Of a DNA stretch of 64,000 nucleotides, positions 1 to 37,173 are shown in pieces. Source of the stretch: Botryllus schlosseri (lineage: Eukaryota); contig CM119371.1 of NCBI GenBank assembly GCA_051294905.1, positions 28,646,001 to 28,710,000 of the forward strand, written 5' to 3'. The notes below the pieces were generated by a model. It had not been told where the DNA came from, ran no database searches, and saw only the letters and a program-made list of their open reading frames with translations. Position numbers and translations under genes: made by a program. Position 1 is the first letter of the stretch, and each line of letters opens with the position of its first letter.

Positions 1-2100
1 GCAAAATTACTGGTATTGCTCTCGGATTAAAGACGCCGATATTTCTATCATAGACAAGTGTTCCACTTTTAACCACGTTCAGGAGTCGAGGCTTGTCCCA
101 AAGCATAATCGAACCGAGTTTTAGCCAATTCTACCGTCTAGTTCGAGTCGAATTTCATCTCTACTTTTCAGAGAAATTGCACGAGTATCATCACCTGGCC
201 AACGTCTTTCGCAAAATTACTGGTATTGCTCTCGGATTAAAGACGCCGATATTTCTATCATAGACAAGTGTTCCACTTTTAACCACGTTCAGGAGTCGAG
301 GCTTGTCCCAAAGCATAATCGAACCGAGTTTTAGCCAATTCTACCGTCTAGTTCGAGTCGAATTTCATCTCTACTTTTCAGAGAAATTGCACGAGTATCA
401 TCACCTGGCCAACGTCTTTCGCAAAATTACTGGTATTGCTCTCGGATTAAAGACGCCGATATTTCTATCATAGACAAGTGTTCCACTTTTAACCACGTTC
501 AGGAGTCGAGGCTTGTCCCAAAGCATAATCGAACCGAGTTTTAGCCAATTCTACCGTCTAGTTCGAGTCGAATTTCATCTCTACTTTTCAGAGAAATTGC
601 ACGAGTATCATCACCTGGCCAACGTCTTTCGCAAAATTACACGTATAGCTGTCGGATTAAAGACGCCGATATTTCTATCATAGACAAGTGTACCACTTTT
701 AACCACGTTCAGGAGTCGAAGCTTGTCCCAAAGCATAATCGAACCGAGTTGTAGCCAATTCTACCGTCTAGTTCGAGTCGAATTTCATCTCTACTTTTCA
801 GAAAAATTGCACGAGTATCATCACCTGGCCAACGTCTTTCGCAAAATTACACGTATAGCTGTCGGATTAAAGACGCCGATATTTCTATCATAGACAAGTG
901 TACCACTTTTAACCACGTTCAGGAGTCGAAGCTTGTCCCAAAGCATAATCGAACCGAGTTGTAGCCAATTCTACCGTCTAGTTCGAGTCGAATTTCATCT
1001 CTACTTTTCAGAAAAATTGCACGAGTATCATCACCTGGCCAACGTCTTTCGCAAAATTACACGTATAGCTGTCGGATTAAAGACGCCGATATTTCTATCA
1101 TAGACAAGTGTACCACTTTTAACCACGTTCAGGAGTCGGAGCTTGTCCCAAAGCATAATCGAACCGAGTTGTAGCCAATTCTACCGTCTAGTTCGAGTCG
1201 AATTTCATCTCTACTTTTCAGAAAAATTGCACGAGTATCATCACCTCGCCAACGTCTTTCGCAAAATTACACGTATAGCTCTCGGATTAAAGACGCCGAT
1301 ATTTCTATCATAGACAAGTGTACCACTTTTAACCACGTTCAGGAGTCGAAGCTTGTCCCAAAGCATAATCGAACCGAGTTGTAGCCAATTCTACCGTCTA
1401 GTTCGAGTCGAATTTCATCTCTACTTTTCAGAGAAATTGCACGAGTATCATCACCTGGCCAACGTCTTTCGCAAAATTACACGTATAGCTCTCGGATTAA
1501 AGACGCCGATATTTCTATCATAGACAAGTGTACCACTTTTAACCACGTTCAGGAGTCGAAGCTTGTCCCAAAGCATAATCGAACCGAGTTGTAGCCAATT
1601 CTACCGTCTAGTTCGAGTCAAATTTCATCTCTACTTTTCAGAAAAATTGCACGAGTATCATCACCTGGCCAACGTCTTTCGCAAAATTACACGTATAGCT
1701 CTCGGATTAAAGACGCCGATATTTCTATCATAGACAAGTGTACCACTTTTAACCACGTTCAGGAGTCGAAGCTTGTCCCAAAGCATAATCGAACCGAGTT
1801 GTAGCCAATTCTACCGTCTAGTTCGAGTCGAATTTCATCTCTACTTTTCAGAGAAATTGCACTAGTATCATCACCTGGCCAACGTCTTTCGCAAAATTAC
1901 ACGTATAGCTGTCGGATTAAAGACGCCGATATTTCTATCATAGACAAGTGTACCACTTTTAACCACGTTCAGGAGTCGAAGCTTGTCCCAAAGCATAATC
2001 GAACCGAGTTTTAGCCAATTCTACCGTCTAGTTCGAGTCGAATTTCATCTCTACTTTGCAGAGAAATAGCGCGAGTGTCATCACCTCGCCAATGTTTGTC
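1..2100 (+). repeat. Tandem array of a 210-bp unit (10 units in window, runs off the left edge)
   Basis: GCAAAATTAC recurs at 1, 211, 421, 631, 841, 1051, 1261, 1471, 1681, 1891. Units are near-identical; the last degenerates around 2050-2100. Confidence 0.98.
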
Positions 2101-2216
2101 GAAAAATAGCAAAGCATAATGCACACGACGATTGAAAATTGTATTTTTATTGCACAGAAAATGAAAGGATTGCTTTCCGAATATGAATAGCAGTCAACAA
2201 TACCGAAACATTATAT

Positions 2217-2712
2217 TTAGGAAGTACTGGATTTTTCACATTCAGAACAAAACCATAGAAAAGATGGTTCACTCCAAACACCATTCGGAATCGGTTGAGG
2301 ATGGCATTCACCATGATACCATGTGTCACATGCATCACATTTTACCATTTCAGGTTGGGAATGGGCATAAGGCAACTTGCATATACAAAATACTGGCAGG
2401 TTTATAGCTGAGAAGGGGATTGGTGTTGGATCCACGACAAAGAAATCCAGTAAATCGACATGATCTCTTTCAATCATTGTGAGGCACTTCTGCCGAAGTT
2501 GCTGCTCATACACCACCGTTTCTGGATTGAACCCAAAACACAGGCTTATGGCATTGGCTATAGCGAAGACACCGCAATCACTACTATTACTTTGCTGTTG
2601 GACCCTTGGAAATAGTATGCTGAGAGTGCTCGAACGCGGTCTACACAGCATTCCGATCGAACATATAGTTTCATCGTCATATGCCGAAGAATTGTAGGCG
2701 GAATCATACACG
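2217..2712 (-). pseudogene. 3' part of Ulp1/SENP-like (C48) cysteine protease + C-terminal PHD finger gene, interrupted by a transposon
   Basis: ORF 2217..2711 has YDS (catalytic Asp), QQQSNSSDCG (oxyanion Gln, catalytic Cys) and CICK...CDAC..WYHGEC...WFCSEC (C4HC3 PHD). Minus-strand AATAAA at 2146-2151 downstream of the stop. Confidence 0.85.
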
Positions 2713-2859
2713 CAGTGGTGGCTTTTGGGGTAGGCGAGGTAGGCGGTCGCCTAGGGCCCCCCCTGATTGATTTACGCGCTTTCGAGGGCCCCCCTCCTCA
2801 GTTTACGCGCTTTTTTCAACTATTTCTCCGGTTCACGCGCTTTTTTTCAAGTATTACCA

Positions 2860-3925
2860 TTTTCCGAATAACCGCGGAATCCTTGTATCCATAAAGAATC
2901 TTGGTATTGTACCGTAAAGAGGGGTCAAACATCAATCCACTTTTTTTAGTTATCATTTTACGAATAACCACAAAAATCCATGCACCAATGTAGAATATGG
3001 TACCGTAAGCAATTGTCGATCATTAAATTCCTGCACTTGGTGCAAGAGCTCACTTCGATTTTATAATCTCTATCCATTTTGCCATTAGTTAAAGGGCCCC
3101 CCCTCCTACATTTACGCGAATGTTATCATTTTGCAGATAACTGCAAAATACATGTACCCATGTAGAATATAATACCGAAAACAGTAGTCAACCCGCTAAA
3201 AGAGCTTACTTTGATTTTATAGGGGGGCCCCCTCCTACATTTATGCAAATTTTAGTTATCATTTTGCGAATAGCCGTGTGAAAATACATGTAGGTCTACT
3301 GCCTACGTATGTAAAATATGGTACCGTAAGCAGTAGTCGATCATTAAATTTTTGCACTAGTTGCAAGAGCTTACTTTGATTTTATGATCTCTATCCATTT
3401 TGACAGTAGCTAAAGGGCCCCCCTCCTACATTTACGCGAATGCTATCATTTTGCAAATAACTGTGAAAATACATGTACCCTTGTAGAATATAATACCGTA
3501 AACAGTAGTCAATTATTAAATTTCTGCACCCGCTAAAATGGCTTACTTTGATTTTATGAGGAGGGCCTTCCTTCTTCATTTATGCGATTTTTGGTTATCA
3601 TTTTACAAATAACCGTGAAAATATATGTACCCATGTAGCATCTGGTACAGTAAACAGCAGTCGATCATTACATTTCTGCATCAGCTAAATAGCTTGCTTT
3701 GATTTTATGAGCCCCCCCCCCTACATTTATGCGAATTTTCGTTATCATTTTGCGAATAACCGTGAAAATACATTTACCGATGTCGAATATGGTACCGTAA
3801 ACAATCTATCATTAAATTTCTGCACCCGCTAAAAGAGATTACTTTGAATTCATGTGGTCGCCCCCTCCCACATTTATGCGAATTTTCGTAATCATTTTGC
3901 GAATAACCATTAAAATACATGCAGG
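2860..3925 (+). repeat. Degenerate subterminal tandem repeats (~130-190 bp) inside the hAT element
   Basis: Motif TACATTTA(C/T)GCGAA...TATCATTTTGC recurs near 3107, 3236, 3427, 3578, 3722, 3869. Confidence 0.8.
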
Positions 3926-5460
3926 CCTACCGATAATGAAGCGAGGCCACACTGAGCCTGAATATCCAGAATAGCAAAGGAAATAGTCATTTGAAAAGCC
4001 AATGAAAGCATGTAGGCTATTATAGCCTATATATTGTTGTTTACTGAGCCATTGTCATGACTCAACATATTTGTTGTGAATTAGGCCTTTTCTGAATGGA
4101 AATCCATTCTCAGGGTTGTCATGATTTGTTCATTTCTTGTCTGGCAGCTTCCTAAATACTCAAAGGTTATGTATTATGGTGTTTTAAGCTGTTTGCAGGA
4201 ATCTTAAATTGCAACTTTTCTTCATTTTTTCAAGCAATTTTTGCAGCTTTTCGATTTTTCATGCAACTCACTTTTTACTGGAAATATTTGGTACTATATG
4301 TAAATAGATCGCTTGATTATTTCACTGTGGTTTGAATTTGAGGTCATTTCATATTTGACGTACATTCAGGCTAGACCGCCGTAAATTATATTACCACTGG
4401 GTCAATTTTTTCAGGCAATTGATTTTGTCGAAGGCGCTAACACTGAGTTTTGCGACAGTGCCTTGGATACGCATCGATTCGAGTATCTCATACCTTAATA
4501 ATTCCAAGGAACTTATCCATAAATGTACCTTTTTAGTGTAACTGTAGTGAAAAATAAATGCAACTTTCCACGGATTTGACTGCAACCAAGATTTGCCCTA
4601 AGATCAGGTGTTGCATAAGACAATTTTGACCATTACATTCTTTAAATGGGCTACCAGTTCAATATAAATATGACCCGGTAAACAGCATATTAAGTAAGGC
4701 GCACTCGTCAGTTGACAACCGTACACTTCTACGATGAGTTTGGTCACTCATTTAAAAGTTATGTTGTAATTTGTTGCATTAGTATCTCCTAATTACCGTA
4801 CTCTAGTCAAGTATCTGCTACAATGCCGCGAGTACATGCTAAATGTAAGTCAGAATCTCAGAAAAGGAAGTGGTTCAGATTCAGAAAGAAATGACAATGC
4901 AAATTTTGAACTGCTACACAAATATTTTAACAATCAATGTCAGCTCAGGTATGTTCTGCACAAATTGAGGATGATGCTGTTTTCCCAACAACTATAATGC
5001 CTTATGACTTGAATGATGTAATAGTGCTTTCAAATACGTATATGGTATTTGATTGTAGTGGTCTTTTGTATATGCTATTTGTGGCTTTTTACCGAGGGCC
5101 GAATTTCCTGGCAACCCTACTATAGTACCGTATGACCGTATACTTCAAAGTTTGTTGTTGCCATTGTTACAATGCGAATGTCATGGTTTGTGATTTTGAT
5201 TGTTGCATCATACTTTGCCTTTTTGGTTTTGCTTTTAAATCTGTTTAAATCCCTTTGGTGTGCCGTTAACTCCTGAAAAGTGGCACCCGAAAATTCTTTG
5301 AGTGCAAGAAATATTATATTACAATGGATGTTGTATTGAAAGCTATATTCTTACGGATCGTGAAACTAGCTCTTCACAGGTTATACCAGTGCTGATGTGT
5401 TCCTGTGGTATTACTGGTGTTGTACCACGTTGCCGCACATTTTGCTCTATGCCTCTTCAT

Positions 5461-6079
5461 TAGGGCTGTTCAAAAATAACTTTTTTTCCTGAATCTTGCT
5501 GGTTACTTGATTAAATCGTTAGGTTGCCTTAAAAAACGACGCATACCAAATTTGAATTCATTCCGACAAATATTCGCGGGTTACGTAGAGTTTGAAAATT
5601 TAGGATTTGCCCGAAAACGCAAAAAAAATTTTTTCTCAAATTTTTTTGCCAGCCCCATGAAATTGTTGGGCTGTCTTCAAAAACTATGCAAAACAAATTT
5701 GACTCAATTCCAAGCTGTAGAAGCGGAGTTATTTCAGTTTTTATTCGATAATTCTGGGATTATCCTTGATTGGTGGATAATCCAAGAATTATCACCGAAA
5801 AACTGGAATAACTCCGCTTCTACGGCTTGGAATTGAGTCAAATTTGTTTTGCATAGTTTTTGAAGACAGCCCAACAATTTCATGGGGTTGGCAAAAAAAT
5901 TTGAGAAAAATTTTTTTTTGCGTTTTTGGGCAAATCCAAAATTTTCAAACTCTACGTAACCCGCGAATATTTGTCGGAATGAATTCAAATTTGGTATGCG
6001 TCGTTTTTTAAGGCAACCTAACGATTTAATCAAGTAACCAGCAAGATTCAGGAAAAAAAGTTATTTTTGAACAGCCCTA
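5461..6079. mobile_element. Near-perfect palindromic (foldback) MITE
   Basis: TAGGGCTGTTCAAAAATAAC...GTTATTTTTGAACAGCCCTA with ~290-bp arms (mirror ORFs 5507+ and 6033-). Flanks CTCTTCAT/CTATTCAT are an 8-bp TSD with 1 mismatch. Confidence 0.92.
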
Positions 6080-6573
6080 CTATTCATGCAACAAAATCTT
6101 CTTGGTAGAAAAAAGATAGGCCCAATCCAGCACCTGGCTGAAACCTTGACGCGGTGTGCTGGCTTATTACTAATGTCAGCCGACAGCTTTCTGGATTTAT
6201 TTTTATATGGTCCATTTGGCGTGCAGTTGCCTTGGTATACTATTATGTCATGCTACATCCCATAATTCTTCTAAATAGGTGGGCCTCGACAAGCACTATA
6301 GTTCACTTGAGTCACTTGTTTTCAAATATGACAAGTAGTACTTTGGCATGTCATTATAATTATTTAATATGGTTACAGTTTTATCATGATGTACAGACAA
6401 TGTACTGCCGGAAGAGTGCATACGAGGTACACAACAATAAAAACTTCGTTCAGCGTTAGTAAGGGGGGTCTGGGGGGCGTAGCCCCCCAGAAGTTGCGAT
6501 GATGTAGATAAGGGCCCCCCCCAGAAGTTTCGCCTAGGGCCCCCCTAATCGTAAGGCCACCACTGCATACACG

Positions 6574-6749
6574 CATATCTGGCCATCTTCACAAAACATA
6601 TTCGAAACGGTGACCCAATGATTGTTATTTATATTAACTATCTGGATAAATTTTGATTCCTGTGCTGGGGCGAAAACCGGTCCCGCACGGTCCCGACTAT
6701 AATACCCGCAAGACGTCAATCCATCTACTTCAGGAAATTGTGTATTCAT
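6574..6749 (-). pseudogene. 5' part of the Ulp1-like protease gene
   Basis: QFPEVDGL...FIQIVNINNNHWVTVS (catalytic His in NHW). Joins in frame to ...VYDSAY when 2713-6565 and one TSD copy are removed. Confidence 0.85.
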
Positions 6750-7192
6750 AATAATATAATAATATAATATAATAATATTTTGCAGTTTTGTTGACTAGCT
6801 ATTTGCACCGAAGCTCCCAGAAGCATATGTTTGAGTTGTATCGATTCACAGCCTGTTGGGACTTTGTGCTGAACTGGAATCATGTGCATGATAATATGTC
6901 CTTTGTTAGCTCTCTTCTGTTGAAGTGTCTGTGTCCACTACATGACCTTTGGTAATTCCGGTTATTGTTGCTGAGTTCTCTTGTTCTTTTCTTTGAAATT
7001 CTATTGCGGCTCTCAACCACTGTCTGCCCCTGTTTATGATGCTTGGTACAAACATACAGATGCCATAGCCTTGCATGTACAGTACGTATGTGTACAGTTG
7101 GAATAGTGCATTGATATATTGTGCCACTGTTAGTGTTCATTGAATCCATATGCTGCTATTACAAGCATGTTGCCATAACTGACAGTGTTACA

Positions 7193-8206
7193 ATGATAGA
7201 AATATCGGCGTCTTTAATCCGAGAGCTATACGTGTAATTTTGCGAAAGACGTTGGCCAGGTGATGATACTCGTGCAATTTTTCTGAAAAGTAGAGATGAA
7301 ATTCGACTCGAACTAGACGGTAGAATTGGCTACAACTCGGTTCGATTATGCTTTGGGACAAGCTTCGACTCCTGAACGTGGTTAAAAGTGGTACACTTGT
7401 CTATGATAGAAATATCGGCGTCTTTAATCCGACAGCTATACGTGTAATTTTGCGAAAGACGTTGGCCAGGTGATGATACTCGTGCAATTTTTCTGAAAAG
7501 TAGAGATGAAATTCGACTCGAACTAGACGGTAGAATTGGCTACAACTCGGTTCGATTATGCTTTGGGACAAGCTTCGACTCCTGAACGTGGTTAAAAGTG
7601 GTACACTTGTCTATGATAGAAATATCGGCGTCTTTAATCCGAGAGCTATACGTGTAATTTTGCGAAAGACGTTGGCCAGGTGATGATACTCGTGCAATTT
7701 CTCAGAAAAGTAGAGATGAAATTCGACTCGAACTAGACGGTAGAATTGGCTACAACTCGGTTCGATTATGCTTTGGGACAAGCTTCGACTCCTGAACGTG
7801 GTTAAAAGTGGTACACTTGTCTATGATAGAAATATCGGCGTCTTTAATCCGACAGCTATACGTGTAATTTTGCGAAAGACGTTGGCCAGGTGATGATACT
7901 CGTGCAATTTTTCTGAAAAGTAGAGATGAAATTCGACTCGAACTAGACGGTAGAATTGGCTAAAACTCGGTTCGATTATGCTTTGGGACAAGCCTCGACT
8001 CCTGAACGTGGTTAAAAGTGGAACACTTGTCTATGATAGAAATATCGGCGTCTTTAATCCGAGAGCAATACCAGTAATTTTGCGAAAGACGTTGGCCAGG
8101 TGATGATACTCGTGCAATTTCTCTGAAAAGTAGAGATGAAATTCGACTCGAACTAGACGGTAGAATTGGCTAAAACTCGGTTCGATTATGCTCGACTCCT
8201 GAACGT
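7193..8206 (-). repeat. Inverted array of the same 210-bp unit (~4.8 units)
   Basis: Reverse complement of the 1-2100 unit; AATATCGGCGTCTTTAATCC at 7201, 7411, 7621, 7831, 8041. Confidence 0.97.
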
Positions 8207-8975
8207 CTTCTTGCGTATTGTATTTGGTTGAAATAATACTTGCAATAAATCATAGTTGTCTGTTTTGGACATGTTTTACGCGACAGATCCGCATAAAATT
8301 TGGTATGGACAGAGTTGTATATACGTTTTATCATGTGTCAGTGTCCAAATCCGGATACAATATCCGGATACGCCATTGTTTCATCATTTTGGTGATACAA
8401 CCGTTCATGTTGTTATATGTCACATTTAGTAGGTACCCTTCGATTTGTGTGATAGAATTTTGTGTGATAACTTCACTCTGGTCACCCAAAACAGTATCGC
8501 TCAGTGCTTGTTTCAATGGCGTTCAAGGCGATTCGTCGTGTATTTCTTGAAGTTGCGTCGGAATTAGTTAGACAGTTCAACATTTAAGTAGCGGTGGCGA
8601 GTCGTTATGACTAGTGAATAATACTGTGTAGCCTATGTTACATTTCTCACGAGATTGATGTGATATTGCGGCTTTGATCCTTTGTAGAGTTTGCTACGTA
8701 TATGAATATAATGACAGAAGATATAGAATATCTGGTCCGTGTGCATTGGCTATTGTGAGATGAATTCATGGAAAGAAAGACTGAAGAATACTACAAAGTG
8801 AACAAGTGGAAAGATCTTGAACTATGCCGATATGCAATTCACAATATCGTTGATTGAAAATATGTCCTATATTAACTGCAGAAACTCGAGTATGAATATA
8901 ACAAATAATATTGCAACTGTCTTGTGGTCTTATATAATGCCTGTCCGATTACCGCAGAAACTTGAGTATGACTAG

Positions 8976-10284
8976 CAGGACCGTAAGTGCCGCACCCCAA
9001 ACCCCCCAATTGTGGGGGGCCCGAACTCGAAGGGGGCCCAAAATTATTTCGCGAATTAGCATAAATTATGGAGCATTTTTCAAAAATTGATGCAACTTTT
9101 TCAAAAAATTTTCGCGCTGCGTGCGATTTCAAGTTGCCAACTTTCTTAGTTATTTGGTAGCCTACTCTTCCCCAAGACAAAATACGCAATATTTATTGAA
9201 ATGGACATATCGGCGAGACATTCAAAGTTTTAGAACATGTAACATGCGACTCCAAGAAGTGTGCCAGAACGATCGGCAGCGAGAAAACCTGAGCCAAAAA
9301 GGACTGCCCGCTTACGCTGACCGAAAACTTCGGGATATATGCAAAATGCATATAGGTTTAATTGTCCATAGGCGCCTAAATGACTGGCGCCGAATGTTCC
9401 TGTTTTGGCAATCTGAACCTCAGAAGACAAATATCATTCCGCAGGGGAAAATTGTATGCCCGTAAAGAAATACAAATTTGAAATCGTGTGCGTCGTTAGT
9501 CTAGTACATATCGGCAATTTTGTATTTTTTGATAAAACAGACAGGAGATCACGAAATGACATCATGAAACGAAGTCATACCAACGGGGCCGCCCGCCCGA
9601 ATATGTTTAATTATTATTTAGGGGCTCTACAGTTTCCAAGCCACCTGATTCAGCTCTACTGGTAAATCTGACAACGTGAACAGAGAGAACAAGAAATTGA
9701 TAGCAATATATATGCAATTCCCAATATTATTGACCGATTTTATCATGAATTATCGAATATTTTCGCGCTGGCTCACTAAACTGTGGCCCTTATTTCGTGA
9801 CAAAAGCGAACAACGTGATGGGGGGTTATCACCCTATGGGAGTCCGAGACCCAAGTCTTATTGGGGGGTCTGGCCAAGTGCTGTTTCGTTCCTGCGAACG
9901 GGTATACGCCCGAAGATGTTCAATTATTATTGAGGGGTCCTACCATTTCAAACACACCTCACTCAGGTCTACCGTTAAATCTGACTACGTGGGCAGAGAG
10001 AGAGGATAAAAATTGATAACACTATATATTCAATTCCCGATCATATTGACCGATTAAATCATGAATTTTTTCGCGCTTCGCGCGTGTGGACGACCAGTGC
10101 TGCCCCACTAAACGGACGGTGAACACAGATGATGAGTAGCGGTAAACAGAGTATAGCCAATGGAGGTCTGGGGGGCCAAGCCCCCCAGAAGTTCGGTTTA
10201 ATCACCCTATGGGGGGGGGGGGGCATGACCAACGTTTATTTTGGGGGGGGGGCGGGGGGCTGACGAAGTGCTGTTACGGCCCTG
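8976..10284. mobile_element. Non-autonomous hAT-type element nested in the CAC-TIR element
   Basis: TIR CAGGACCGTAA / TTACGGCCCTG; perfect 8-bp TSD ATGACTAG at 8968-8975 and 10285-10292. Confidence 0.92.
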
Positions 10285-10335
10285 ATGACTAGAACAAGCG
10301 CCTTGTGTAATGTTAATGTTCTGCTTGAGCTCGAC

Positions 10336-11602
10336 TCACAATAGCCAGAGCTTACTCCTTGAAAGTGTGCAAAATCGCACTTGAAGGGAACTCGTTGTCA
10401 TTGCCAAGAACACAGGAAGACGTCTGCCGGTCGACATTAGTTGTAAGCCAATGCACCACGTCAAGGTGTCGACCAACGCATTGGTTTCCTTTTTTAGGTA
10501 GGGAACCTCAATGTGGATAGGCAGCATTTGCCACAGAGAGAAAAAACTACCATACTAAAAGAGCATATTGTTCATTTTTTTTTCAAACCATCTCGCAAAC
10601 TTTTGGAAAATTTGGAGGACTTTTTTTGCTTCTCATGCAATGCAAACTTTGCAAAATTGTGAGACAAGATGTTATTCAAGTGTCTCATTGCCTTGTCCAT
10701 GACATCCCTCAACCTCATTTAGGTCTGAGCCAGATTGAAGTGACACAGTATGAATTAATTTGTTATAGAATGGATCACAGTGAATTGCGTCAAGTACCCT
10801 GGAAAAATTGATCTTTTTCAGGGGTTTTGCCATTTCTTTACTGTGGATAACATAAAAGCGGAGAACCATGCCATGAAACTGTTCAGACGGGCTCTTCAAT
10901 CCACCGACTTTCTTCTGCATCACTTTAATGAGGTTTCCCGATGGCGCTGCAGATGTTAGGCATGTGGCAATTGCTTCGTTAGCTTGCTTAGAAATGGCTC
11001 CCAAAAGCACTCCACCAATACATTCAAGTATGTCTAAAAACATGTCAAAGTTTTTCCATGGAAAGGGAAAGTATCAAAGGCTATTAACTTACCAGATTCC
11101 TTGCTGTTGACTCCTCCATCTCTGTGATTGGATCCTGTTCTTTACCGCACATGAGAGAATCAAACTTCTTCAAAAGTAATGCTGAAACTGGCAATTGCGG
11201 CAAACCCAGCAACTTGTTAGCTTGGTGACAGATATTAGAATAATGTTGATAAAATCCGTCAACACCAAGTTTGCAATATTCAGAATGGAGTTGTTTCACC
11301 AATGGAACAGCTTTGGTCACGTCTAGTTCCTCGAATGATGGGGCGCATTCAAAGTATTTTTTGCTATTTACACAAGCCCTCTTTAAAACAGCAATTACAG
11401 CATCCTCAGATATATCCCAAGTACTGGTGGGAACTTTATGGTTTTTGTAATGTTTTTTCAGAGATTTCACAGTCGGAAAGGATGCTTCGCATTCCTCACA
11501 AATCACACCTTTCCAGTTATCGAGTCCTTCGAAACATTCTTCAATTTCCATTTCAGTTAGTCCCTCCCAGTCATCCCAAAGTGATGCAGCTGAATCAGTC
11601 AT
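10336..11602 (-). pseudogene. Spliced, frameshifted gene: N-terminal C2H2 finger plus a domain resembling the C-terminal module of P-element/THAP9-type transposases
   Basis: CEECEASFPTVKSLKKHYKNH (C2H2) in ORF 11084..11602. GTAAGT...TTTTTAG intron at ~11092-11034. Next exon ILECIGG...CLTS...NLIKVMQKKVGGLKSPSEQF. A 1-nt shift just before the donor is needed to join the frames. 3' end approximate. Confidence 0.55.
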
Positions 11603-12392
11603 GATACAGATTTCTATCCGTGACGAAATATGATCTAAACCTGGCGAAAAATAGAACAGGGGCTACACGGTATTATTCACTAGTCATAACGACTCGCCAC
11701 CGCTACCTAAATGTTGAACTGTCTACCTAATTCCGACGTAACTTCAAGAAATACACGAAGAATCGCCTTGAACGCCATTGAAACAAGCACTGAGCTATCC
11801 TGTTTTGGGTGCATCCATCTGACCGTGACCATTCTGCCGGCTAACAATGGGAGAACAATCGAGTCGTCACTCCAGTCATACTCTATAGTTAAATGCATTC
11901 ATTGCTATGGATCAAGCCCTGGCTGGTTCCGACAATAAATGACAACGTTGAAACCGCTGATACCGCTCACCTCGTTGAAATGCGTAAGCAACATAAGTAA
12001 AGTTTCTGCAGTGACGAGATTACTGCTGGATGAGATGAGGACGAAGGCAGGCTGCAGCAAGCGAGCTGCAGAGGTGTTTGTTTTCGAATTCAGTTGTTCC
12101 TCAGATATTGATTCTTATCCTTCCTGTTCATCAGCCATTAGGGTACTTGATATCAGTTGTCAGAATGACAGAAAAGCGACGTGTCGGTGTTGTTGCAGAG
12201 GTAACTGGTGGTTCTGATTTCTGATGATATTTGGAATGATTGTGTGGTGTGGTAATGTATGAATACATGCTGGCATGGTCAATTGGTCATGTTTATGATT
12301 TCGGAAACACTAGAACTGAAGTGCCACCGGTACTCTCTGATTGATTGTGCACATCATCATGCTGATTATATATAATATTATATATATTTCCT

Positions 12393-15016
12393 CAGTGGCG
12401 GCTCGTCCTATAGGGCAACTGGGGCATTGCCCCACCTAAAATTCTGTTCAATAACAATTTAACCATTTATAGACGCACAGCAATCAATATATACCGAGAT
12501 CACAGCGAAACCCGCGTTCTTCTTGTGCTTTCGCTTGCAAATGCCCATACATAGCGCAGTCTGCGAAAATCGAATTCTCTTCTGTGTTTTCGCTTTGTGA
12601 GTGCCTAGCCGGGGCTTGCCCCGGTAGCGCTCATAATAAGCTTTCACTATCTATTCTTTCAAAGCCGCGCACAATAAAGAAACGGTGATTTACTCTCTCC
12701 TATTCGTAAAATGGCCGAGCAACCGGGGCAAATATGCCTGGTCGCCCTTAAGGTGTGATGTAACAATCGTATCTATATCTGAACTCGGTTACCGTAATAT
12801 GCGTTGAGTCGACCTTTGCTGGTATAGGTCGATTTTGACGGTGTTTCGCACCATGATAATTCTTGAAACTTGGTATGATATGTCGTGAAGGTAGTATTTA
12901 ACACTGCTCCAAGTTTCAGGCTTGCTACTTAGAGATAAGGGTAGTAATTCCGTTTCCGAAGTTCAGTGTGTGCTGATCTATCATGTACATAGTACAGCAA
13001 ACAGATTTTACTCAAAAGCCGGTATTGGTCTCCATTGATTTTGACGATGTTCTATACCGAGATCGGTCATGACATTTGGCACGGTAACTGTTAGTATCGA
13101 CCGCTGTAACAAGTTTTAAGTTTGTCACTGAACTATGTGGGTGGTAATTTCGTTTCCAAAGTCGAGTAAGAGCTGACTCTTCATTTATCGCTAATAAATT
13201 TACGCAAAAGCCGTTATTGGTCTCTAACGATTTTAACGATGTTCCATACCTAGATCTGTCATGAGCTTTTGCACGGTATGTCTTGATTTTAGTATCGAAC
13301 GCGGTGCCAAGTCTTAAAGTTGACACTCAATGATTGAGGCAGTTATTTCGTTTTCGAGGTCGAGTATGGTAGAGATGCGCGCTGATCTGATACTTGGCCT
13401 ACCTACGTCATTGCGGATCTCACGCAAAAGCCGGTGTCGGTCTGTGCTAATCTATAGTCTGCGTTCCATAACGAGATCGGTGATGATATTTCCAATGGTA
13501 TATCTCGATGATCGCATGAAACAGCTAACCAAGATTCTCGGTTTGCATTCAAATATTCACATAATTTTATGTTCGCCAATGTCCATTTCACTGTGGAATT
13601 GTCAATTGTGGCCTTCAAACCATTTGCTTACAATCCCCTGTCAAATGCGATAGCTATTTCATTTTCGATGTCGGCTAACAGCTGATCATTCGATCAGCCT
13701 ATTCCTCGATCTATTTTACTCAAAGTTCGGCGTTCGTCTGTTTGTATTGATTTTGACAGTGTACCATACCGGAATGGGTTATGAGATTGCGTATGCTACT
13801 TCTCGATGATTTCTTGTAACAGTATACTAAGTTTACGGCTTTTATTCATGTATTTATTGATTGATATATATTCCAACGGCGATTTCGCAGCAGACTTATA
13901 GACAGTAAGCCGTATGTGTTGTGTCACAGTCTCCAGTTTCAAGGCCAAAATGTCCTATGTTGTTCCGAGACCGAAGTTCCGAGGCTGCTGTCCTTATAGT
14001 TCTTCAAAGACAATTCAAATTGATGTTCTGGATTCAATATGACAGGCCCGTTCTATGAGATAACAATTGTATATGTGTCCGAACTCGTTGACCTTTCCAG
14101 TTAGGCTTACGCAATCTCTCGAGTTCTAGTCATTGGAATTAGTCAGGTCAAGTCAAGTGCGAACATGAATCGTATTGAATCTTTGCTCCGTACGTAGTTT
14201 ACGCAGTTGCCTTTATAGAGCGAAAATGAGAGGTCTAGAAGTTGCCAAGTCCATTGATCCAATCGTACGCCGGGTGCCTCCGCTTTGGTTGCTATTATCA
14301 CCTGGTCGTAACCAGAGATGGCCACAGTCCGGTTCGGGAGCCGGAGCAGGATTTCAATGTTTTTTTTACCTGGCCGGACTGGATCCGGATTTTGAATTTG
14401 GGGTGACGGTCTGATTTTAGCCGGATTTTTTTGCTGTGATATGATTAATTAGCATTGTTCTGGCAGGATTTTTTCGGATTCCGAACTGGACATTCACCAG
14501 CCGGATTTCTTTGGACTCTGAATTTCCAATTGCCAGCCGGATCCGGATAGATTCGGATCCCGAAATTTTGGAATCCGCCCATCTCTGGTCGTAACCACCA
14601 GCTCAGTGGTCGTAACACACCAGGATCGTGTACGAAACACTTTCGGACGGGTTTAGAAAAATTAGGGTCTATCGATTTGCGTAATCTATAACTCTACCAT
14701 GAAATCATAACGCATGCTACTAAGGATGACCTGATACTTGATTCGTGGCATAGGGACGATTCTTAGGTCACGTACATTTTGTAAAATAATCCTTTGATTA
14801 AAAATAAATGAATAAAACATTTGTTACCACAGTTCAAGTCACGGCTCGCCGGCAAACCTCTCGCGGCACCTACGTTAAAATCACTGTTGTCGGGAAATTC
14901 ATGTGACCATCATAAGGTTACCTTTTTTACGTTGGAAACGCCATTGTGACGTCATGTTGATAAAAGTCGCTCGCAGCCCTTGCCCCACCACCCGATATTG
15001 TCACGAGCCGCCACTG
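12393..15016. mobile_element. Non-autonomous hAT-type element
   Basis: TIR CAGTGGCGGCTCGT / ACGAGCCGCCACTG; perfect 8-bp TSD TATTTCCT at 12385-12392 and 15017-15024; degenerate ~200-bp internal repeats at ~12810-13800. Confidence 0.93.
14313..14587. mobile_element. MITE (CAGAGATGG ends, CCGGAT-rich)
   Basis: TSD GTCGTAAC at 14305-14312 and 14588-14595; a partial related copy lies at ~15450-15567. Confidence 0.9.
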
Positions 15017-20137: not shown

Positions 20138-21772
20138 TTATCTTTGATGATATTTCTTCCAAACTTGTATGACTTTCAGTGCTGATTCCTTTGTCAGTTG
20201 GTATTGTCCCCGATTATTAAATAAACAAGGAACGTCAACTGTGCACAAAATGTGCTGGAACGGTGTCCAGCAAGAATCTTTATTTTGAGGCCAGTGAAAA
20301 AACTCTGATGGGCCTTTTGGGTGCATGAATTCAACTAAGGCATCGTTGTTTGGCTTGTCAATTTCTGTGACCATGCCAATGCACCAGTTTTCATCATAAA
20401 CGCAGCATACAAATTTGTTTATGATAATTTCAATTTGAAGTACATTTTCTTGGTTTGAGTCTTCATCTAATTCAACTTCCAATACATAGTGTTTGTCTTG
20501 ACTGACACGTTTTGCTCCCAGTTTGGTTGATGACAATGGCCTAAAATGATGGAATGCCCGAATACCTTTGACTGTGGTAGCGAGCCGAAATCGCTGTTCC
20601 AAAAAAGCTCTCGTAGCATCCAATTCGTCTTTGAGCAAATTAATAAATTTTATTTTTTGGAGATTTTTCACGCAAGAGGACATCATTTCTTCCACGTTCA
20701 AAAGCTGACCATTCAGTTGGCGTCTCAGACTTTCCATTGCTGTAGCTCGTTTTACAGTGCCACCAATGCCATCACATGGCGATTTACCATGGCTCGAGGC
20801 AAAAAAGGACCACGCAGCATCCACTTCGAAGTCAGCTTTGTGCTTGCACAAATTGTAAAATGATTTTCTGTTTTTGTACTGGGCAGCGCAACCATCGCTA
20901 AAATATTCCACATTGTCCAAGTTGTGAATTGTACTTTTGAGAACTTCAATTGTCTTTTGCTGAATCAGATACACCATTACTGCATCGTGCAACAACTCTT
21001 CCGATAAAAAGCATATATTTAAATGCAAAGTATTGTTGCTTGCAGACTTGTAGTAGCAAACTACCGGGTGCACAGTGCAGCATTGGTGAGTCCAATGATA
21101 CCCTTGCGCTTCATCTTGAATGTGGAAAGAATAATTTTCCGCAAAATCCATTAATACAAGAGCTGTTTGCTGATCCATATCTTGTTTTCGTTTTTTCAAA
21201 TATAAAGACTGTGAATGCGAAATGTGATGATGTGGTGCTAAATCTGCAAGCTTTTTTAATATCAACTGAATAAATTCAGTTATGGTTAAGGTTTGAGTTA
21301 TTAGATCAGTTCGGTCAACTGACACCCACTGTTTGAACGAAATAAGTTCATCCACATCCTCAAATTTTGAGTCAAGCAATTCCTGAACGGGTTGAAATCC
21401 GGGACAGTTTGGGTAACGCTGTAGCATGCAGTCTCTATTTTCAATATTGCAGACTGCCAATTGAAGCAAATCTTTATAAGTTTCTTCAATGCGGGCAGCA
21501 TGCAGCAAAAGAACAACATTTTGATGTATGGTACAGACACATACGGCATGTGTTCCAGATGATCCTGCACTAACACACCATTTCGGCCTCAATTCACAAA
21601 ATTTTGTGAATCCAATTTTTGCATCCGGGTTTTGCTGTTTATACAGGGTATGGAATTCTTTCAGAGTACATAAAAGTAGACGTTTTTGTTGATACACATT
21701 CATTTTAATGCTAACTCGGTCCTTCATCCCTGGCATCAACCTGCTATGTTCGTTGTTTTCATAAAATTTCAC
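20138..21772 (-). CDS. Sola2-type DDD transposase, 5'-truncated
   Basis: 544-aa frame with LRPKWC..CVCTIHQN, MDFAENY..Q.YHW, FSDGCAAQYKN, HGKSPCDGIGGTVKR. It starts at GTG directly against the inner edge of the right TIR, so the N-terminus appears deleted. Confidence 0.8.
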   Translation of the reverse strand: MKFYENNEHSRLMPGMKDRVSIKMNVYQQKRLLLCTLKEFHTLYKQQNPDAKIGFTKFCELRPKWCVSAGSSGTHAVCVCTIHQNVVLLLHAARIEETYKDLLQLAVCNIENRDCMLQRYPNCPGFQPVQELLDSKFEDVDELISFKQWVSVDRTDLITQTLTITEFIQLILKKLADLAPHHHISHSQSLYLKKRKQDMDQQTALVLMDFAENYSFHIQDEAQGYHWTHQCCTVHPVVCYYKSASNNTLHLNICFLSEELLHDAVMVYLIQQKTIEVLKSTIHNLDNVEYFSDGCAAQYKNRKSFYNLCKHKADFEVDAAWSFFASSHGKSPCDGIGGTVKRATAMESLRRQLNGQLLNVEEMMSSCVKNLQKIKFINLLKDELDATRAFLEQRFRLATTVKGIRAFHHFRPLSSTKLGAKRVSQDKHYVLEVELDEDSNQENVLQIEIIINKFVCCVYDENWCIGMVTEIDKPNNDALVEFMHPKGPSEFFHWPQNKDSCWTPFQHILCTVDVPCLFNNRGQYQLTKESALKVIQVWKKYHQR

Positions 21773-22185
21773 AACTTTTTAACTGCTCTTGTTGAAAAGG
21801 GGGAGGATTTTGAATAAATTTGCAAGCTAGCTTCATGGCGCTCTTATGGTATGTTACGATTCAAAAGTAACTAATGTTATTTTTGTTTTTAAAAGCTCTT
21901 GTCAAGAGCTTTCCAATGATACCTTACACCTGATGACATCATCTAGTCACCGAAAGATATCTGCAATTGACAATGAAGTCACGCGTGAGTGATTTTCAAA
22001 GACATGAACAAAATCACAAGGTTAAAGGTCAGACTATGCAACTCCAAGTGTCAAAGAAATCGAAAAAGTATCAAGCAGGATATAAATGAACAAGTGTGTA
22101 AGTATCACTCTCAACAACCCTAATTTGACCGAAATATAGCAAATTTAAACTACATGTATAAATTCCCGATATTTTTTCTGCTTAA

Positions 22186-27281: not shown

Positions 27282-27661
27282 GTCTATATGGACTATTATT
27301 CCCGGAGCAATTTTTCTATTGATGTATTTGATGTATGGCAGGGGTTCTTAACACGGTGCCCGCACATAATTGTTTTGTGGCCAATAATTTGGACAATTTT
27401 ACATGCGAAGTTGAGAACATCTGTTGTATGATATACTGGTACGACAATTGAGCAGACGACTATCTAATAAAGTTCTTCCTTTAATTTAGTTTCACACTTT
27501 CATACATGTTAGGTAGTATAATACTATCATCGAGCCAAGTTATATGTGCCTAATTTAGTTGGTATAATTTGTGCCGAACACATTGGACTACAAGGACTTC
27601 GAACTCCGCGTAAAGAGTTTCCTGGAGTCAAATATTTCAATTTTTGACCACCTCAAGCTTC

Positions 27662-29194
27662 ATGGATATGAATGGCATCAAATATCATGAATGTGATATA
27701 CGCGGGAAAGAAATCCGCGGCAAAAGTCTTTTTAAGCGTCATATGGATGGGCATTCCGACATCAGAAATCATGAGTGCGATATATGTGGGAAAGAATTCC
27801 ACCGCAAAGATCATTTCAAGCGTCATATGGATGGACATTCCGACATCAAAAATCATAAGTGCGATATATGTGGGAAAGGATTCCACCGCCAAGATCACTT
27901 CAAGTCTCATATGGATTCACATGCTGACATCAGAAATCATAAGTGTGATATATGTGGGATAGAATACCGTTGCATACAAAACCTCAAGCGTCACATGAAT
28001 AAACATGCCGGCTTCAGATATCATAATTGTGAAATATGTGATAAAGCATTTATTCAGGAGCATCAAATCAAGTGTCACATGGATATACATACTGGCTTCG
28101 AAAATCATGAATGTGAGATATGTGGGAAAGAATTCCGTCATAAAAGTGACTTCAAATGTCATATGGATGTACATGCTGGAATCAAAACTCATGGGTGTGA
28201 TATATGTGGGAAAGAATTCCGTACAAAAATACACCTGAAGTATCATATAGATGTACATGCTGGCATCAGAAATTATAAGTGTGATATATGTGATAAAGCA
28301 TTCAGTATGAAGCAACAACTCAAGCGTCACATGGATGTACATGCTGGCATCAGAAATTATAAGTGTGATATATGTGATAAAGCATTCAGTACGAAGCATC
28401 AACTCAAGGGTCACATGGATTTACATGCTGGCATCAAAAATCATGAGTGTGATATTTGCGGGAAAGAATTCCATACGAAAAGTTATCTCAAGCGTCATAT
28501 GGATATACATGCTGGCATCAGAAATCTTAAGTGTGATATATGCGGGAAGGACTTCTGTGAGAAAAGTGAACTCAAGCGTCACATGGATGTACATGCTGGC
28601 ATCAAAAATCATAAGTGTGCTATATGCGGGAAAGAATTTTATGAGAAAAGTGTTTTTGAATGTCATGTAAATGTACATGCCGGCATCAAAAATCTTAAAT
28701 GTGATATATGTGATAAAGCGTTTAGTCAGAAGAACCTACTTGAGGTTCACATGGAAATACATTTTGACTTCAACAATCATAAATGCAAAATTTGTGGGAA
28801 AGAAGTCTGCCAGAAAAAAAATTTCGATCGTCATATGAGTTTACATGCTGGCATCAGAACTTATAAGTGTGATATATGTGGTAAAACACTGAGTCGAAAG
28901 AGTTACCTCAATCTTCATATGGTTATGCATGCTGACTTCAAACAACAAAAATGTGATATTTGTGGGAAAATATTCACTCAGGAAAATTACCTCAAGACTC
29001 ATGTGACGATACATGCTGATATCAAAGATCACAATTGTGAAATATGTGGGAAATCATTTACTTTGAACCGGTACCTCAAGAGTCATATGAATGTTCACGT
29101 TGGCATCAAAAATCACAAATGTGATATATGCGGGAAATTATTTACGCGAATAATTGGCCTCAAGGCTCATTTAAATATACATGCTCGCATCTGA
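27662..29194 (+). CDS. Tandem C2H2 zinc-finger protein, copy 1 (18 fingers, first degenerate), prematurely truncated
   Basis: 28-aa CxxC-x12-HxxxH repeats with HAGIRN-type linkers; first ATG at 27662; TGA at 29192-29194 where the paralog has AGA. Confidence 0.88.
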   Translation: MDMNGIKYHECDIRGKEIRGKSLFKRHMDGHSDIRNHECDICGKEFHRKDHFKRHMDGHSDIKNHKCDICGKGFHRQDHFKSHMDSHADIRNHKCDICGIEYRCIQNLKRHMNKHAGFRYHNCEICDKAFIQEHQIKCHMDIHTGFENHECEICGKEFRHKSDFKCHMDVHAGIKTHGCDICGKEFRTKIHLKYHIDVHAGIRNYKCDICDKAFSMKQQLKRHMDVHAGIRNYKCDICDKAFSTKHQLKGHMDLHAGIKNHECDICGKEFHTKSYLKRHMDIHAGIRNLKCDICGKDFCEKSELKRHMDVHAGIKNHKCAICGKEFYEKSVFECHVNVHAGIKNLKCDICDKAFSQKNLLEVHMEIHFDFNNHKCKICGKEVCQKKNFDRHMSLHAGIRTYKCDICGKTLSRKSYLNLHMVMHADFKQQKCDICGKIFTQENYLKTHVTIHADIKDHNCEICGKSFTLNRYLKSHMNVHVGIKNHKCDICGKLFTRIIGLKAHLNIHARI

Positions 29195-35355: not shown

Positions 35356-36911
35356 CTCTAACCCCATTATGCCATAGTTTATTCCAGGGGTGGGCAACAT
35401 ACGGCCCGCGGGCCGGATCCGGCCCGCAAAGGGATTTTGTCCGGCCCGCGTACAGTTTTTCGTCTTACATGATAATGTGGCCCGCCGGCCCCAGTCTTCC
35501 GAGATTCCCCACTACTTGCTCACATACATTTTAGTGATTGTATGTTTTTATACATACGTATGTACCGCGAGCGAGGGGGGGGAGCTTACGCGTAAGTTCG
35601 TCGAAGCGAGAAGGCTTGCATTATCGGCATTATGATGCACTGAACCCTAATGTCATTTGTGGTAATAATGGTGTTTGTTGACGACAATGGTCAGGCCGAT
35701 ATTTCCTATTTTTGATTCTGTAACCGCCGACTTGTAGCACGGCGCACACTTCTAGGCTTTTGTAAGACACCGATTATGCCAGGTGTTGCCAACTGAAAAC
35801 GGGTCGCGGGTCAATTTCAAATTTCGAGGCCGCGACCGGCATGAATTCAATATCGAGATAGACAGGCCGCTCAGTTTAACAACCACGCTATCTCGTAACC
35901 TACTTAACCCTAATGCATTGATATCTTGGTAAGTTTGGGGTACCGGGCTTATTGAACGTCTTGAAATCTTAATGATGGATTGCACCGTGTGTTGATTGAT
36001 CAGAGAGAAGCAGACATGGTGGTACCTGTATGACAGGGGTGGCCAACCTGCGGCCGTAGAAGCAAATTTGTGCGGCCGTGGACACGTAATTCAATTAGTA
36101 GGTGGTGGCAGCCGTCGACGTGTAATTTGAATTTAGGAATTGACTCCCGATTTCTTGAAAGATTTTAATTATTCTTGTAAGTTTCTTCAATGCGACTTTA
36201 TTTTTCGATTTTGATATAGTTGCGCACTTTGCAATCAGAGCCCCACAGTACAGTTGCGAACAGATCCACTACATATAGAAACACCAACTCGGAATCGTGT
36301 ACTCCTCACTACATCGACAATCCTGACGGGAGGTCAAGACATGCAAAGAACAGCATGCAACAAAGTGACTAATAATAATTGACCTGCCCTGACTGACCCT
36401 CCACCAACTCTACCGGTGAATCTGATCACATGGGATGAGAAATAATACGTAGAACTCAGTGTTGGGATCAAGTCACTACCTTCGAGTCACGAGTCATTTC
36501 GAGTCATTGCACATTTTGACTCGAGTCAAGTCAAGTCAATCGATTTTCGAAGGTGACTCGAGTCAAGTCAAGTCACTCGATTTTTGAAGGTGACTCGAGT
36601 CAAGTCGAGTCAAGTCAAGTCAAGTCACGAGTCAAGTCACATTTCAAGTCAAGTTGCATTTTCGAATGCCTACGCCATTGCATTTTGCTAGCTGTCTGGA
36701 ATACAGATTAACTGGTCATTGAATTTGAACCGATGAACGAATATGAAGGTAAATATAAACGTAAGACGGCGCTGTATCGCTTACATATACGTAGAAATGC
36801 TGAACTACGCAAGTATAACGGCAAAGCCTCAGTATATAGTTACCAGCCAATATAGAGAATTGATAAGAAACGAATTGATAAGATGCAATACATTACCCAT
36901 TTACAAATGAA

Positions 36912-37148
36912 TGTGTGAATATCTCTTGCTGCTATCACTCTCTCTCTACTAGTATCCTTAAACGCATGAGCGATCTCGTCTTCTTGTTGTTGTGATTGCG
37001 CGACGTGTGTGCATGTATGTATCAGCACCCACGTCTTGTGAGTTATTGGAGTAATAGGGATTAGGTTAGTCGATGCAACTGTTCTTTTGTATTTCAGTTT
37101 GATCATTTATTACGGTATTTAACCTATGAATAAATGCAAAGTTGCACA
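36912..37148 (+). repeat. 5' LTR
   Basis: TGTGTGAATATC...AAAGTTGCACA; Inr-like TCAGTT at 37094-37099; AATAAA at 37129-37134. Confidence 0.96.
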
Positions 37149-37158: not shown

Positions 37159-37173
37159 TGATACAGATTAACA

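Follow-up and report, generated by a model that had tools for sequence, protein, structure and literature searches.

A front-truncated Ulp1-like protease-PHD finger gene, split by a hAT-like insertion, between satellite arms in Botryllus schlosseri

Two open reading frames lying between inverted arrays of 210-bp units in Botryllus schlosseri raise the question of whether they once formed a single gene, and whether that gene belonged to the host or to a transposon. We analyzed the 64-kb stretch of DNA that contains them (hereafter, the window), whose features are collected in Table 1. The original prediction held that an Ulp1-like protease gene with a PHD finger is reconstituted when an insertion is taken out, and the split gene proved to be real: removal of 3,853 bp together with one copy of an 8-bp target duplication leaves one frame. 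The duplicated sequence, CATACACG, has exactly two occurrences in the window, those listed in Table 1. The gene pieces, at 6567-6749 and 2220-2711 on the minus strand, translate without stops and abut at ...GQICV/YDSAY. A profile built from 63 homologues matches the former with columns 18-91 (E 3e-14), the latter with columns 83-245 (E 1.9e-40), and no other part of the 64-kb window. A protein 79% identical to that of the window (P0003) is continuous across the junction. The joint 2704->6566 is also present in DNA contigs of two sequencing runs, X1 (two contigs) and X5 (three contigs), the shorter side of the joint measuring only 23 letters, less than the bridging threshold of 31.

Table 1. 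Features of the element and of its interrupted gene, in window coordinates
Feature	Position	Strand	Basis
Left arm of 10 or more 210-bp units in tandem, the innermost degenerate; the window start cuts the arm	1..2107	+	sequence
3' untranslated stretch running into degenerate arm unit	2108..2216	-	contigs of X1, X5
Gene 3' piece: catalytic Asp, oxyanion Gln and Cys, PHD finger, stop	2217..2712	-	profile, Pfam
Target-site duplication, left copy	2705..2712	+	CATACACG
Non-coding composite insertion, hAT-like; 8-bp duplication, short inverted ends	2713..6565	.	sequence
Degenerate ~147-160-bp tandem units within insertion	2943..3930	+	sequence
Nested palindromic MITE-like element, 305-nt arms, 96%	5461..6079	.	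sequence
Target-site duplication, right copy	6566..6573	+	CATACACG
Surviving gene 5' piece: QFP..GL, FIQI, catalytic His-Trp; starts at an internal Met	6566..6749	-	profile
AT-rich microsatellite-like run; uninterrupted copies depart from the window beyond here	6745..6783	.	contigs
Filler of foreign origin, part of another, transcribed sequence	6784..7192	.	RNA reads
Right arm, 4.8 inverted 210-bp units	7193..8207	-	sequence
Possible outer non-tandem domain of right arm; a left partner would fall outside the window	8208..8482	.	

A recent insertion, hAT-like in kind, separates the catalytic His from the catalytic Asp. Its ends are identical over 10 of 10 bases (11 of 12); this exact 10-mer is found in the window at those two ends only, and the ends are highly repeated in the sequencing runs. 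The combination of an 8-bp duplication with short terminal inverted repeats (TIRs) is presumably a hAT mark; 8-bp duplications occur in other superfamilies as well. The longest stop-free frame within the insertion is 118 aa, and contigs show the joint 5452->6080, without the nested MITE-like element. The window holds a second, related element of this make-up at 12393-15016, likewise with an 8-bp duplication.

As predicted, the joined frame carries a full His-Asp-Cys triad and a C4HC3 finger free of stops. H72, W73, D90, Q125 and C131 (profile positions) are all present in the order HW...D...Q....DCG, as are all ligands of the finger. Conservation at H..Q..DCG among the homologues is by construction, because the 63 profile members were selected for this motif. 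In Pfam the PHD finger scores 31.5 bits (PF00628, cut-off 24), and the C48 protease domain, sought in the 3' piece alone, reaches 16.9 bits against a cut-off of 20.7 (PF02902). P0003 also falls below the latter (17.4 bits), which is passed by 15 of 30 long homologues; P0005 scores 24.7. This last protein, taken as a stand-in for that of the window (alignment A2), has a predicted fold of pLDDT 95.1, and the model resembles a CE-clan protease: 142 positions align with SENP5, at Z 12.0 and rmsd 2.8. Its Z scores are equally 12.0 for NopD, then 11.6 for SENP3, 11.4 for the NEDD8 protease and 11.0 for both XopD and OtDUB; with six matches within 1 Z unit, SUMO, NEDD8 and ubiquitin are inseparable as substrates by the modeled fold. 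Ranked by profile against sequence, SENP1 (3.5e-8) is slightly ahead of SENP8 (2.8e-7).

The nearest solved relatives of the PHD finger are PHF2, BPTF, PHF8 and DIDO, several of them solved with H3K4me3. The residues F-Y-M-W of the window align with Y-Y-M-W of PHF2, four positions that we take to be the aromatic cage. P0003 keeps the cage residues too, and across the 63 homologues the W is found in 62, the M in 50 and Y/F/H at the first position in 61, with Y/W at the second in only 15. Judged by sequence, the finger appears to be of the H3K4me3-reader type. With such relatives, the chromatin target invoked by the original prediction would be active promoters, to which the finger points rather than to heterochromatin.

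The reconstituted gene is not complete but truncated at its front: columns 1-33 of the 246-column profile are absent, and the Met at 6749 stands at column 34, where the family has a conserved Leu. Among the absent columns are W21 (present in 34 of 47 homologues), L22 (45 of 47) and D24 (40 of 47), and with them the N-terminal W-L-x-D helix of the C48 catalytic domain, which we take to act as a lid above the substrate Gly-Gly. The motif aligns with SENP1 WLNDEII, an alignment that is non-significant by itself. No upstream frame restored columns 1-33 better than random DNA did, the best of nine variants scoring 195.4 bits against a 95th percentile of 194.9 and a maximum of 198.8 bits in controls (n=200). 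Searching longer proteins for words of the 61-aa 5' piece gave no candidate, which is weak evidence. The window copy has lost everything from the first protease helix to the inner right arm, and the lost stretch appears to have been replaced, presumably through a deletion, by about 450 bp of foreign DNA. Within the filler at 6784-7192, RNA reads consistently differ from the window and continue elsewhere past 7184. A GIY-YIG or LINE 3' end and the missing protease helix were considered for the filler and found no support: Pfam gave only DUF7676 at E 0.06 and no protein family, the ten RNA-read differences are mostly synonymous in no frame, and the upstream frames scored like random DNA.

Uninterrupted copies were found in the X1 and X5 contigs and in P0003; the DNA upstream of intact copies was unreadable. 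The contigs of these copies run upstream on DNA unlike that of the window, for ~510 and 640 nt in X5 records 15 and 16, extensions that show no fit to the window among those listed; X5 depth is zero at 6962-6981. Contigs covering the open reading frame match the window except at 1 of 483, 1 of 357 and 2-3 of ~177 bases. Their depth is 78-107 in X1, where the lowest listed pieces have 10-17, and 193-241 in X5, where the lowest have 33-63; these values are not a copy number. Given so few differences and the elevated depth, the family looks young and repeated. Record 16 represents an 88%-alike subfamily. In the portions of two RNA runs that were covered (6% and 3%), no read crosses the 2704->6566 joint and RNA depth on the pieces of the reading frame is at most about 2, in insertion-free bins; none of the listed holders of the stretch is recorded as RNA.

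The two 210-bp arrays mirror each other and form the arms of a single foldback-type element. The right arm is identical to left-arm positions 312-1311 at 994 of 1000 bases, and the unit variants form a mirrored gradient, with six diagnostic changes that the outer left units, L1-3, share with the whole right unit lying farthest out and that are absent from the inner units. The right arm breaks off inwardly at position 51 of a unit and has no degenerate inner unit. That the gene belongs with the array, as had been proposed, is supported by contigs that join its 3' end to the degenerate inner unit (X5, 2082-2250, depth 241, 0 differences; X1, 2085-2235, depth 78). A single AATAAA lies about 65 nt past the stop codon, within the 3' untranslated stretch. 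Two X5 contigs lead from the degenerate end of the arm, at 2111, into different sequence, and this loose end resembles, when compared by eye, a further degenerate arm unit. In agreement with the first description of the locus, MULE, KDZ/CxC and integrase queries found no transposase between the arms. Over the 64-kb window, the MULE queries had no match in this deleted copy, four KDZ/CxC queries had none at E 0.01, and the integrase queries matched only a Gypsy element near 40.9-41.2 kb. We ascribe the absence of a transposase to an internal deletion, because the window copy has lost both the front of the gene and the inner end of the right arm. A search of the window against Rfam gave nothing at gathering scores, and a 30-nt piece of the 210-bp unit had no exact match in metagenome contigs.

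Relatives of the gene fall into 2,019 divergent clusters, the named ones being "uncharacterized" or "predicted", and include families present in several copies, which have discrete ends flanked by target duplications. The proposal that the protease and PHD finger are accessory domains of DNA transposons is supported at 60 of the 80 relatives' loci, which carry a Ginger-type, KDZ, MULE or YqaJ gene; no transposon gene was seen at the remaining 20. Among loci of at least 10 kb the proportion is 39 of 44, and KDZ is the best transposon match at 12 of the 80. The module ends long proteins with MULE and SWIM domains (P0133, P0193) or a Ginger-type integrase (L039, L023), as well as an unclassed transposase-like protein (P0039), and at L033 a MULE with the module stands between inverted arms containing tandem units. 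L073 and L060 carry the module as a gene of its own, convergent with a KDZ gene, and at the ISL2EU-like L061 the protease is carried on the YqaJ gene; fusion to the transposase is therefore not the sole arrangement. On a quick tree the window protein groups with P0003 only, on a long branch outside every labelled superfamily, and the labels (Ginger, MULE, KDZ, ISL2EU-like) interleave. No long protein close to that of the window was found, the best long matches being ~30% identical. Tandem arrays of at least 100 bp occur at 8 of the 80 loci, and none of these arrays was seen to form paired inverted arms around the module; 36 of the 80 loci are shorter than 10 kb, too short to show such arms. 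Viral contigs yielded 17 pattern matches and 0 confirmed relatives. No transposase of the window's own family was seen, and neither the element's outer ends nor its target duplication are visible within the window; together with the tree position, the KDZ and YqaJ arrangements, the scant RNA and the 23-letter side of the junction, these observations count against the explanation given below.

We think it likely that the locus derives from a young cut-and-paste transposon of the foldback type, present in many copies, and is now dead; the last gene of the element would end, with the protease-PHD module, just inside one arm. In intact members the module would most likely be the C-terminal tail of the transposase, and we give slightly better than even credence to our best guess of a MULE/Rehavkus-type element, for which the layout of L033 and the termini and PHD finger of Rehavkus were counted. 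In such a transposon the arms, with their 210-bp units, would supply many transposase-binding sites, and the PHD finger would bind H3K4me3 nucleosomes and tether the protein at active promoters. There the His-Asp-Cys protease might strip a ubiquitin-like tag from chromatin or repair proteins. The tag would probably be SUMO, with ubiquitin an unlikely candidate and NEDD8 a still less likely one. Integration into open chromatin would be favored, and SUMO-dependent silencing of the new copy may be blunted; an anti-silencing role of the module is possible.

It is unlikely, in our estimate, that the module is instead, in line with the original prediction, a separate accessory gene, beside a transposase gene like those of KDZ and ISL2EU-like elements or alone in a non-autonomous family, encoding a trans-acting, H3K4me3-tethered deSUMOylase that protects element promoters from silencing. 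The convergent genes of L073 and L060 and the lack of a transposase between the window's arms fit this reading, as do the triad and cage kept in the window (the cage also in P0003) and, in the available part of 10.1101/533091, the requirement of Drosophila piRNA silencing for SUMO. However, the deletion explains the missing transposase, the reading frame is almost without RNA coverage, and the modeled fold ties SUMO, NEDD8 and ubiquitin proteases as a guide to the substrate. For transposon-borne ULP-like genes of plants, the accessible text of PMC6117577 describes weak expression and considers action on SUMO unlikely. Slightly more doubtful is the bolder idea that the 210-bp-armed family encodes a "reader-eraser", free-standing and trans-acting, that docks at H3K4me3 promoters, strips SUMO and counters SUMO-dependent piRNA silencing. 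On this idea, to which the interleaved labels of the tree lend themselves, animal transposons of the Ginger, MULE, KDZ and ISL2EU-like kinds would exchange the module as a cassette for promoter targeting and anti-silencing.

We regard as improbable a passive, Pack-MULE-like capture of the 3' end of another transposon's gene, amplified as inert filler. Heterogeneous interiors are described for MULE derivatives (PMC5225508, in part), the window copy already holds foreign filler, and the arm end at 2111 leads into different sequence in two X5 contigs; but that loose end looks like a further arm unit, the stop codon and AATAAA lie right inside the arm as in a resident last gene, and the 88%-alike subfamily and P0003 suggest that a gene lineage has kept the frame over time. 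That a host gene (SENP/NEDP1-like, with a PHD finger) was duplicated or broken and lies by chance between satellite arrays is largely refuted and very improbable: the fold does match host SENP and NEDD8 proteases and 20 loci lack a visible transposon gene, but the relatives are divergent, multi-copy, bounded by discrete ends and target duplications and mostly linked to transposon genes at the longer loci, and the window gene looks repeated and tied to the arm.

If the locus is a dead transposon copy, it is debris that points to a young family. The uninterrupted copies of that family, almost identical to the window's, could be used to test the purpose of transposon-borne Ulp1-like proteases, an open question since 2010. 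An H3K4me3-type PHD finger predicts that module-bearing insertions lie nearer to active promoters than insertions of module-less relatives. If this is true, a targeting or counter-silencing device would be common to several animal transposon superfamilies. Literature searches, with Repbase Reports and most subscription journals outside their scope, returned no paper joining transposon, Ulp1, PHD finger and terminal inverted repeat, nor any joining transposase, PHD finger, H3K4me3, target site and Mutator; PMC12730594 leaves Ulp1, PHD and SUMO unmentioned.

Among known systems, Kaonashi ULP-like MULEs of Arabidopsis likewise have an intact C48 domain amplified on Mutator-like transposons, its function unproven, but they are plant elements, and PHD and satellite arms go unmentioned in the available text (PMC6117577). 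The Kyakuja-Dileera-Zisupton (KDZ) elements L073 and L060 also end a gene with the C48 and PHD module inside a TIR element; they differ in their short TIRs (133-140 bp in L073/L077), in a KDZ gene on the opposite strand, and in modules forming their own clade (99) that excludes the window protein. Tetris of Drosophila virilis resembles the arms by description only, with TIRs of ~220-bp tandem units that can grow satellite-like; as far as PMC4079207 was available, it is apparently non-autonomous, with no protease or PHD gene reported. Rehavkus, a MULE/MuDR group or sister thereof, shares foldback-type inverted termini with tandem repeats and a PHD finger (PMC6446971, where Table 1 lists the finger; PMC12581902), and in Rehavkus-like Tribolium elements the tandem-repeat termini exceed 11 kb (same sources, in part). 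Its given TIR range of 26-400 bp (PMC6446971) is shorter than the window arms, the consulted portions of both papers mention no Ulp1 domain, and it has a DDE core and a 9-bp duplication, whereas the window has no DDE core and its outer ends are not visible. Ginger1 and Mutator transposases share the layout of the gene, with a PHD finger placed after a C-terminal Ulp1/C48 domain (Bao et al. 2010, PMC2836005, in part). The window copy differs in being without the Gypsy-like integrase core, and its arms of at least 1.0 and 2.1 kb contrast with Ginger1 TIRs of 44-270 bp (Table 1 of that paper). The available part of the same paper already shows the protease-PHD module in Ginger1-9_HM and in aligned Mutator transposases, and proposes a role of the protease in transposition or repair. 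The module is thus a known kind of transposon cargo, of which the window family is a new member.

The window contains two copies of the octamer CATACACG, at 2705-2712 and 6566-6573, which are separated by 3,853 bp of non-coding sequence, 2713-6565, whose ends match at 10 of 10 bases and are very repeated in the sequencing runs. By its 8-bp duplication and short inverted ends, we take this insertion to be probably hAT-like. Judged by the ends, it has a sibling in another CAGTGG-ended element, which lies at 12393-15016 and is flanked by an 8-bp duplication of its own. The minus-strand frames on either side of the insertion are free of stops, one ending in ...HWVTVSNMFCEDGQICVY and the other beginning with VYDSAY..., and together they encode a C48/CE-clan (Ulp1-like) protease domain followed by a PHD finger. 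A family profile of 246 columns, built from 63 motif-filtered homologues, matches the 5' piece at columns 18-91 (E 3e-14) and the 3' piece at columns 83-245 (E 1.9e-40), with no further match in the window; joined with an X at the break, the pieces score 191 bits. The homologous protein P0003, 79% identical, is continuous across the junction, and the joint 2704->6566 is present in DNA contigs of two sequencing runs (two from X1 and three from X5), with a short side of only 23 letters, below the 31-letter bar for bridging. P0003 and these contigs indicate that the uninterrupted state exists in nature. The octamer duplication, the profile matches, the homologue and the joints thus bear out the original prediction that removing the insertion restores a split frame.

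The restored gene is not complete. Its first Met, at 6749, falls on column 34 of 246, where the family has a conserved Leu, and columns 1-33 are absent from the window copy, including W21 (34/47), L22 (45/47) and D24 (40/47), a motif that in a relative aligns weakly with WLNDEII of SENP1. An AT-rich run (6745-6783) lies directly upstream of the Met, and the frames beyond it raise the score by no more than random DNA does. The window copy is unable to make an active protease. Both pieces have almost no RNA coverage, and none of the RNA reads examined, 6% and 3% of two runs, spans the joint. Contigs carrying the uninterrupted 5' piece part from the window upstream, judged on depths, with 6745-6783 masked and few pieces displayed: X5 record 15 continues for ~510 letters past this piece and X5 record 16 (88% alike) for ~640, neither with a listed fit to the window; X5 depth is zero at 6962-6981 versus 244-331 over the ORF piece; and X1 record 8, with a depth of 83, cannot be contained in the 69 that match the window at 6833. 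The filler at 6784-7192 looks like a piece of another, transcribed locus. Its coverage by bulk RNA reads reaches a depth of ~90 over 6904-7076; the reads show many fixed differences from the window and part from it at 7184, beyond which 35 of them continue elsewhere. A 26-nt inverted match (77%) between 2192-2217 and 6771-6796, which brackets the gene remnant and sits at the filler junction, is probably due to chance.

Two arrays of 210-bp units, at 1-2107 and 7193-8192, lie in opposing orientation and are identical at 994 of 1000 positions in the best register. Their variants are mirrored, with six changes common to units 1-3 of the left array and the outermost complete unit of the right array and absent from the inner units. 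The left arm finishes in a degenerate unit; the right arm has no such unit and breaks off at unit position 51. Together the arrays form the pair of arms of a single foldback-type element. Its right arm has lost the inner end, and its left outer end lies beyond the window start. The stop codon and AATAAA of the gene are at most ~110 nt from the left arm, and depth is raised to the level of the ORF in contigs that link the gene end with the degenerate unit (X5 241, 230, 193; X1 78, 107, 83; the lowest of the listed pieces are at 33-63 and 10-17, respectively, depth not being equal to copy number). This raised depth and the near-identity of an ORF contig to the window (1 difference in 483) fit a young repeated family. 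The predicted link to a satellite-armed element therefore stands, since contigs tie the gene end to the arm; what is linked is a front-truncated relic, not a complete cargo gene.

P0003 has relatives in 2,019 clusters at E <= 0.001, none of them close. The module is terminal in the proteins P0133 and P0193, after MULE+SWIM cores, and at the loci L039, L023, L046 and L037, after Ginger-type integrase parts (L023 and L026 have TGT...ACA ends with 4-bp duplications); in P0039 it follows an unclassed transposase-like region. Among 64 long proteins, with a sponge, cnidarians, amphioxus and insects as the named hosts, 22 contain YqaJ and four MULE-type domains. Transposon genes were found at 60 of 80 fetched loci (36 integrase-type, 12 KDZ, 8 MULE, 4 YqaJ) and at 39 of the 44 loci of >= 10 kb, counts in which queries came partly from the same 80 loci, matches may belong to a neighbouring element and 43 loci derive from one assembly. 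The Ginger-type, KDZ, MULE and YqaJ genes fit the known occurrence of Ulp1/PHD accessory modules on several DNA transposon groups. The window feature is real: it is what remains, truncated and interrupted, of a module already described in a number of animal DNA transposon groups, and we think it likely to be a dead derivative of an armed transposon family. Two further arrangements were observed, an element in which a YqaJ gene, with a C48 domain at its end, and a THAP+DDE_Tnp_4 gene face each other (L061:4393-10818) and, in P0178 (1,015 aa, 29 members), the same module plus an ADP-ribose reader (Macro domain, C48, PHD).

In intact members the module would, by a slight preference, be the tail of the element's transposase, as in the terminal arrangements. 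In the KDZ elements L073 and L060 (L073:5199-16830, L060:2735-17874) it forms a gene of its own that is convergent with the transposase gene, and a coding minisatellite precedes the protease; a separate accessory anti-silencing gene is an unlikely reading of the window copy. Passive capture is improbable, and a host gene, beside the arm linkage and raised depth, is scarcely credible. A quick tree mixes the Ginger and MULE labels and places the window protein with P0003 only, so sequence does not fix the parent superfamily. Because of the foldback arms, the parent transposase of the armed family was probably MULE/Rehavkus-type; at L033, a MULE carries the module between arms holding short tandem units.

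The stand-in P0005, folded from alignment A2, is predicted to be a CE-clan protease (pLDDT 95); its structure matches tie at Z 11-12 (SENP5, NopD, SENP3, NEDD8 protease, XopD, OtDUB), and the fold thus does not single out a substrate. The best solved PHD matches are PHF2, BPTF, PHF8 and DIDO, several crystallised with H3K4me3. The window PHD has F-Y-M-W where PHF2 has Y-Y-M-W, positions that presumably form the aromatic cage; across the family, W is conserved in 62/63 and M in 50/63. The PHD would most likely tether the protein to H3K4me3 promoters, where the protease would strip SUMO or another ubiquitin-like tag, which would help integration and repair and possibly weaken silencing. That the module is instead a deSUMOylase on its own, tethered to H3K4me3 and countering silencing, is unlikely.

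Other features of the window
Feature	Coordinates	Strand	Details
Inverted-end element	8483-11811		188-nt ends, 89%, starting CACCC
C2H2 ORF in the inverted-end element	11087-11662	-	
546-aa open frame	20138-21778	-	DDE transposase-like by motif SHGKSPCDGIGG
Single-frame C2H2 zinc-finger array	27614-29194		84-bp period
Gypsy-type LTR element, young	36911-42123		238-nt terminal repeats, 100% identical
Single-frame C2H2 zinc-finger array	53190-55538		84-bp period

The inverted-end element also holds a 133-aa ORF and shows no duplication at four end positions tried; its CACCC start is common to L060 and L073. The 546-aa frame has no real Pfam match. The zinc-finger arrays, 73% alike across ~3 kb including flanks, are probably paralogues, and the Gypsy-type element encodes RT, RNase H and integrase in one frame of 1,540 aa.

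Literature searches, Repbase Reports being outside their scope, found nothing that links such a PHD with TIR elements or with targeting by H3K4me3; term searches of PMC6431247, PMC13359780, PMC4438587 and PMC12730594 contributed nothing to the comparisons. SUMO is required for piRNA silencing in Drosophila (10.1101/533091), the premise of the anti-silencing reading, and plant transposon ULPs are reported to be weakly expressed and doubtful as SUMO proteases (PMC6117577). Ginger1-9_HM has Ulp1 and PHD, both aligned with Mutator transposases, and a role in transposition or repair was proposed (PMC2836005). MULE derivatives have heterogeneous interiors (PMC5225508), and foldback-like elements may be unrelated to each other (PMC3169594). 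Rehavkus elements, from arthropod and annelid hosts, have a PHD and 9-bp duplications (PMC6446971) and are foldback elements with tandem repeats inside inverted termini (PMC12581902); Tetris carries 220-bp units in its TIRs (PMC4079207).
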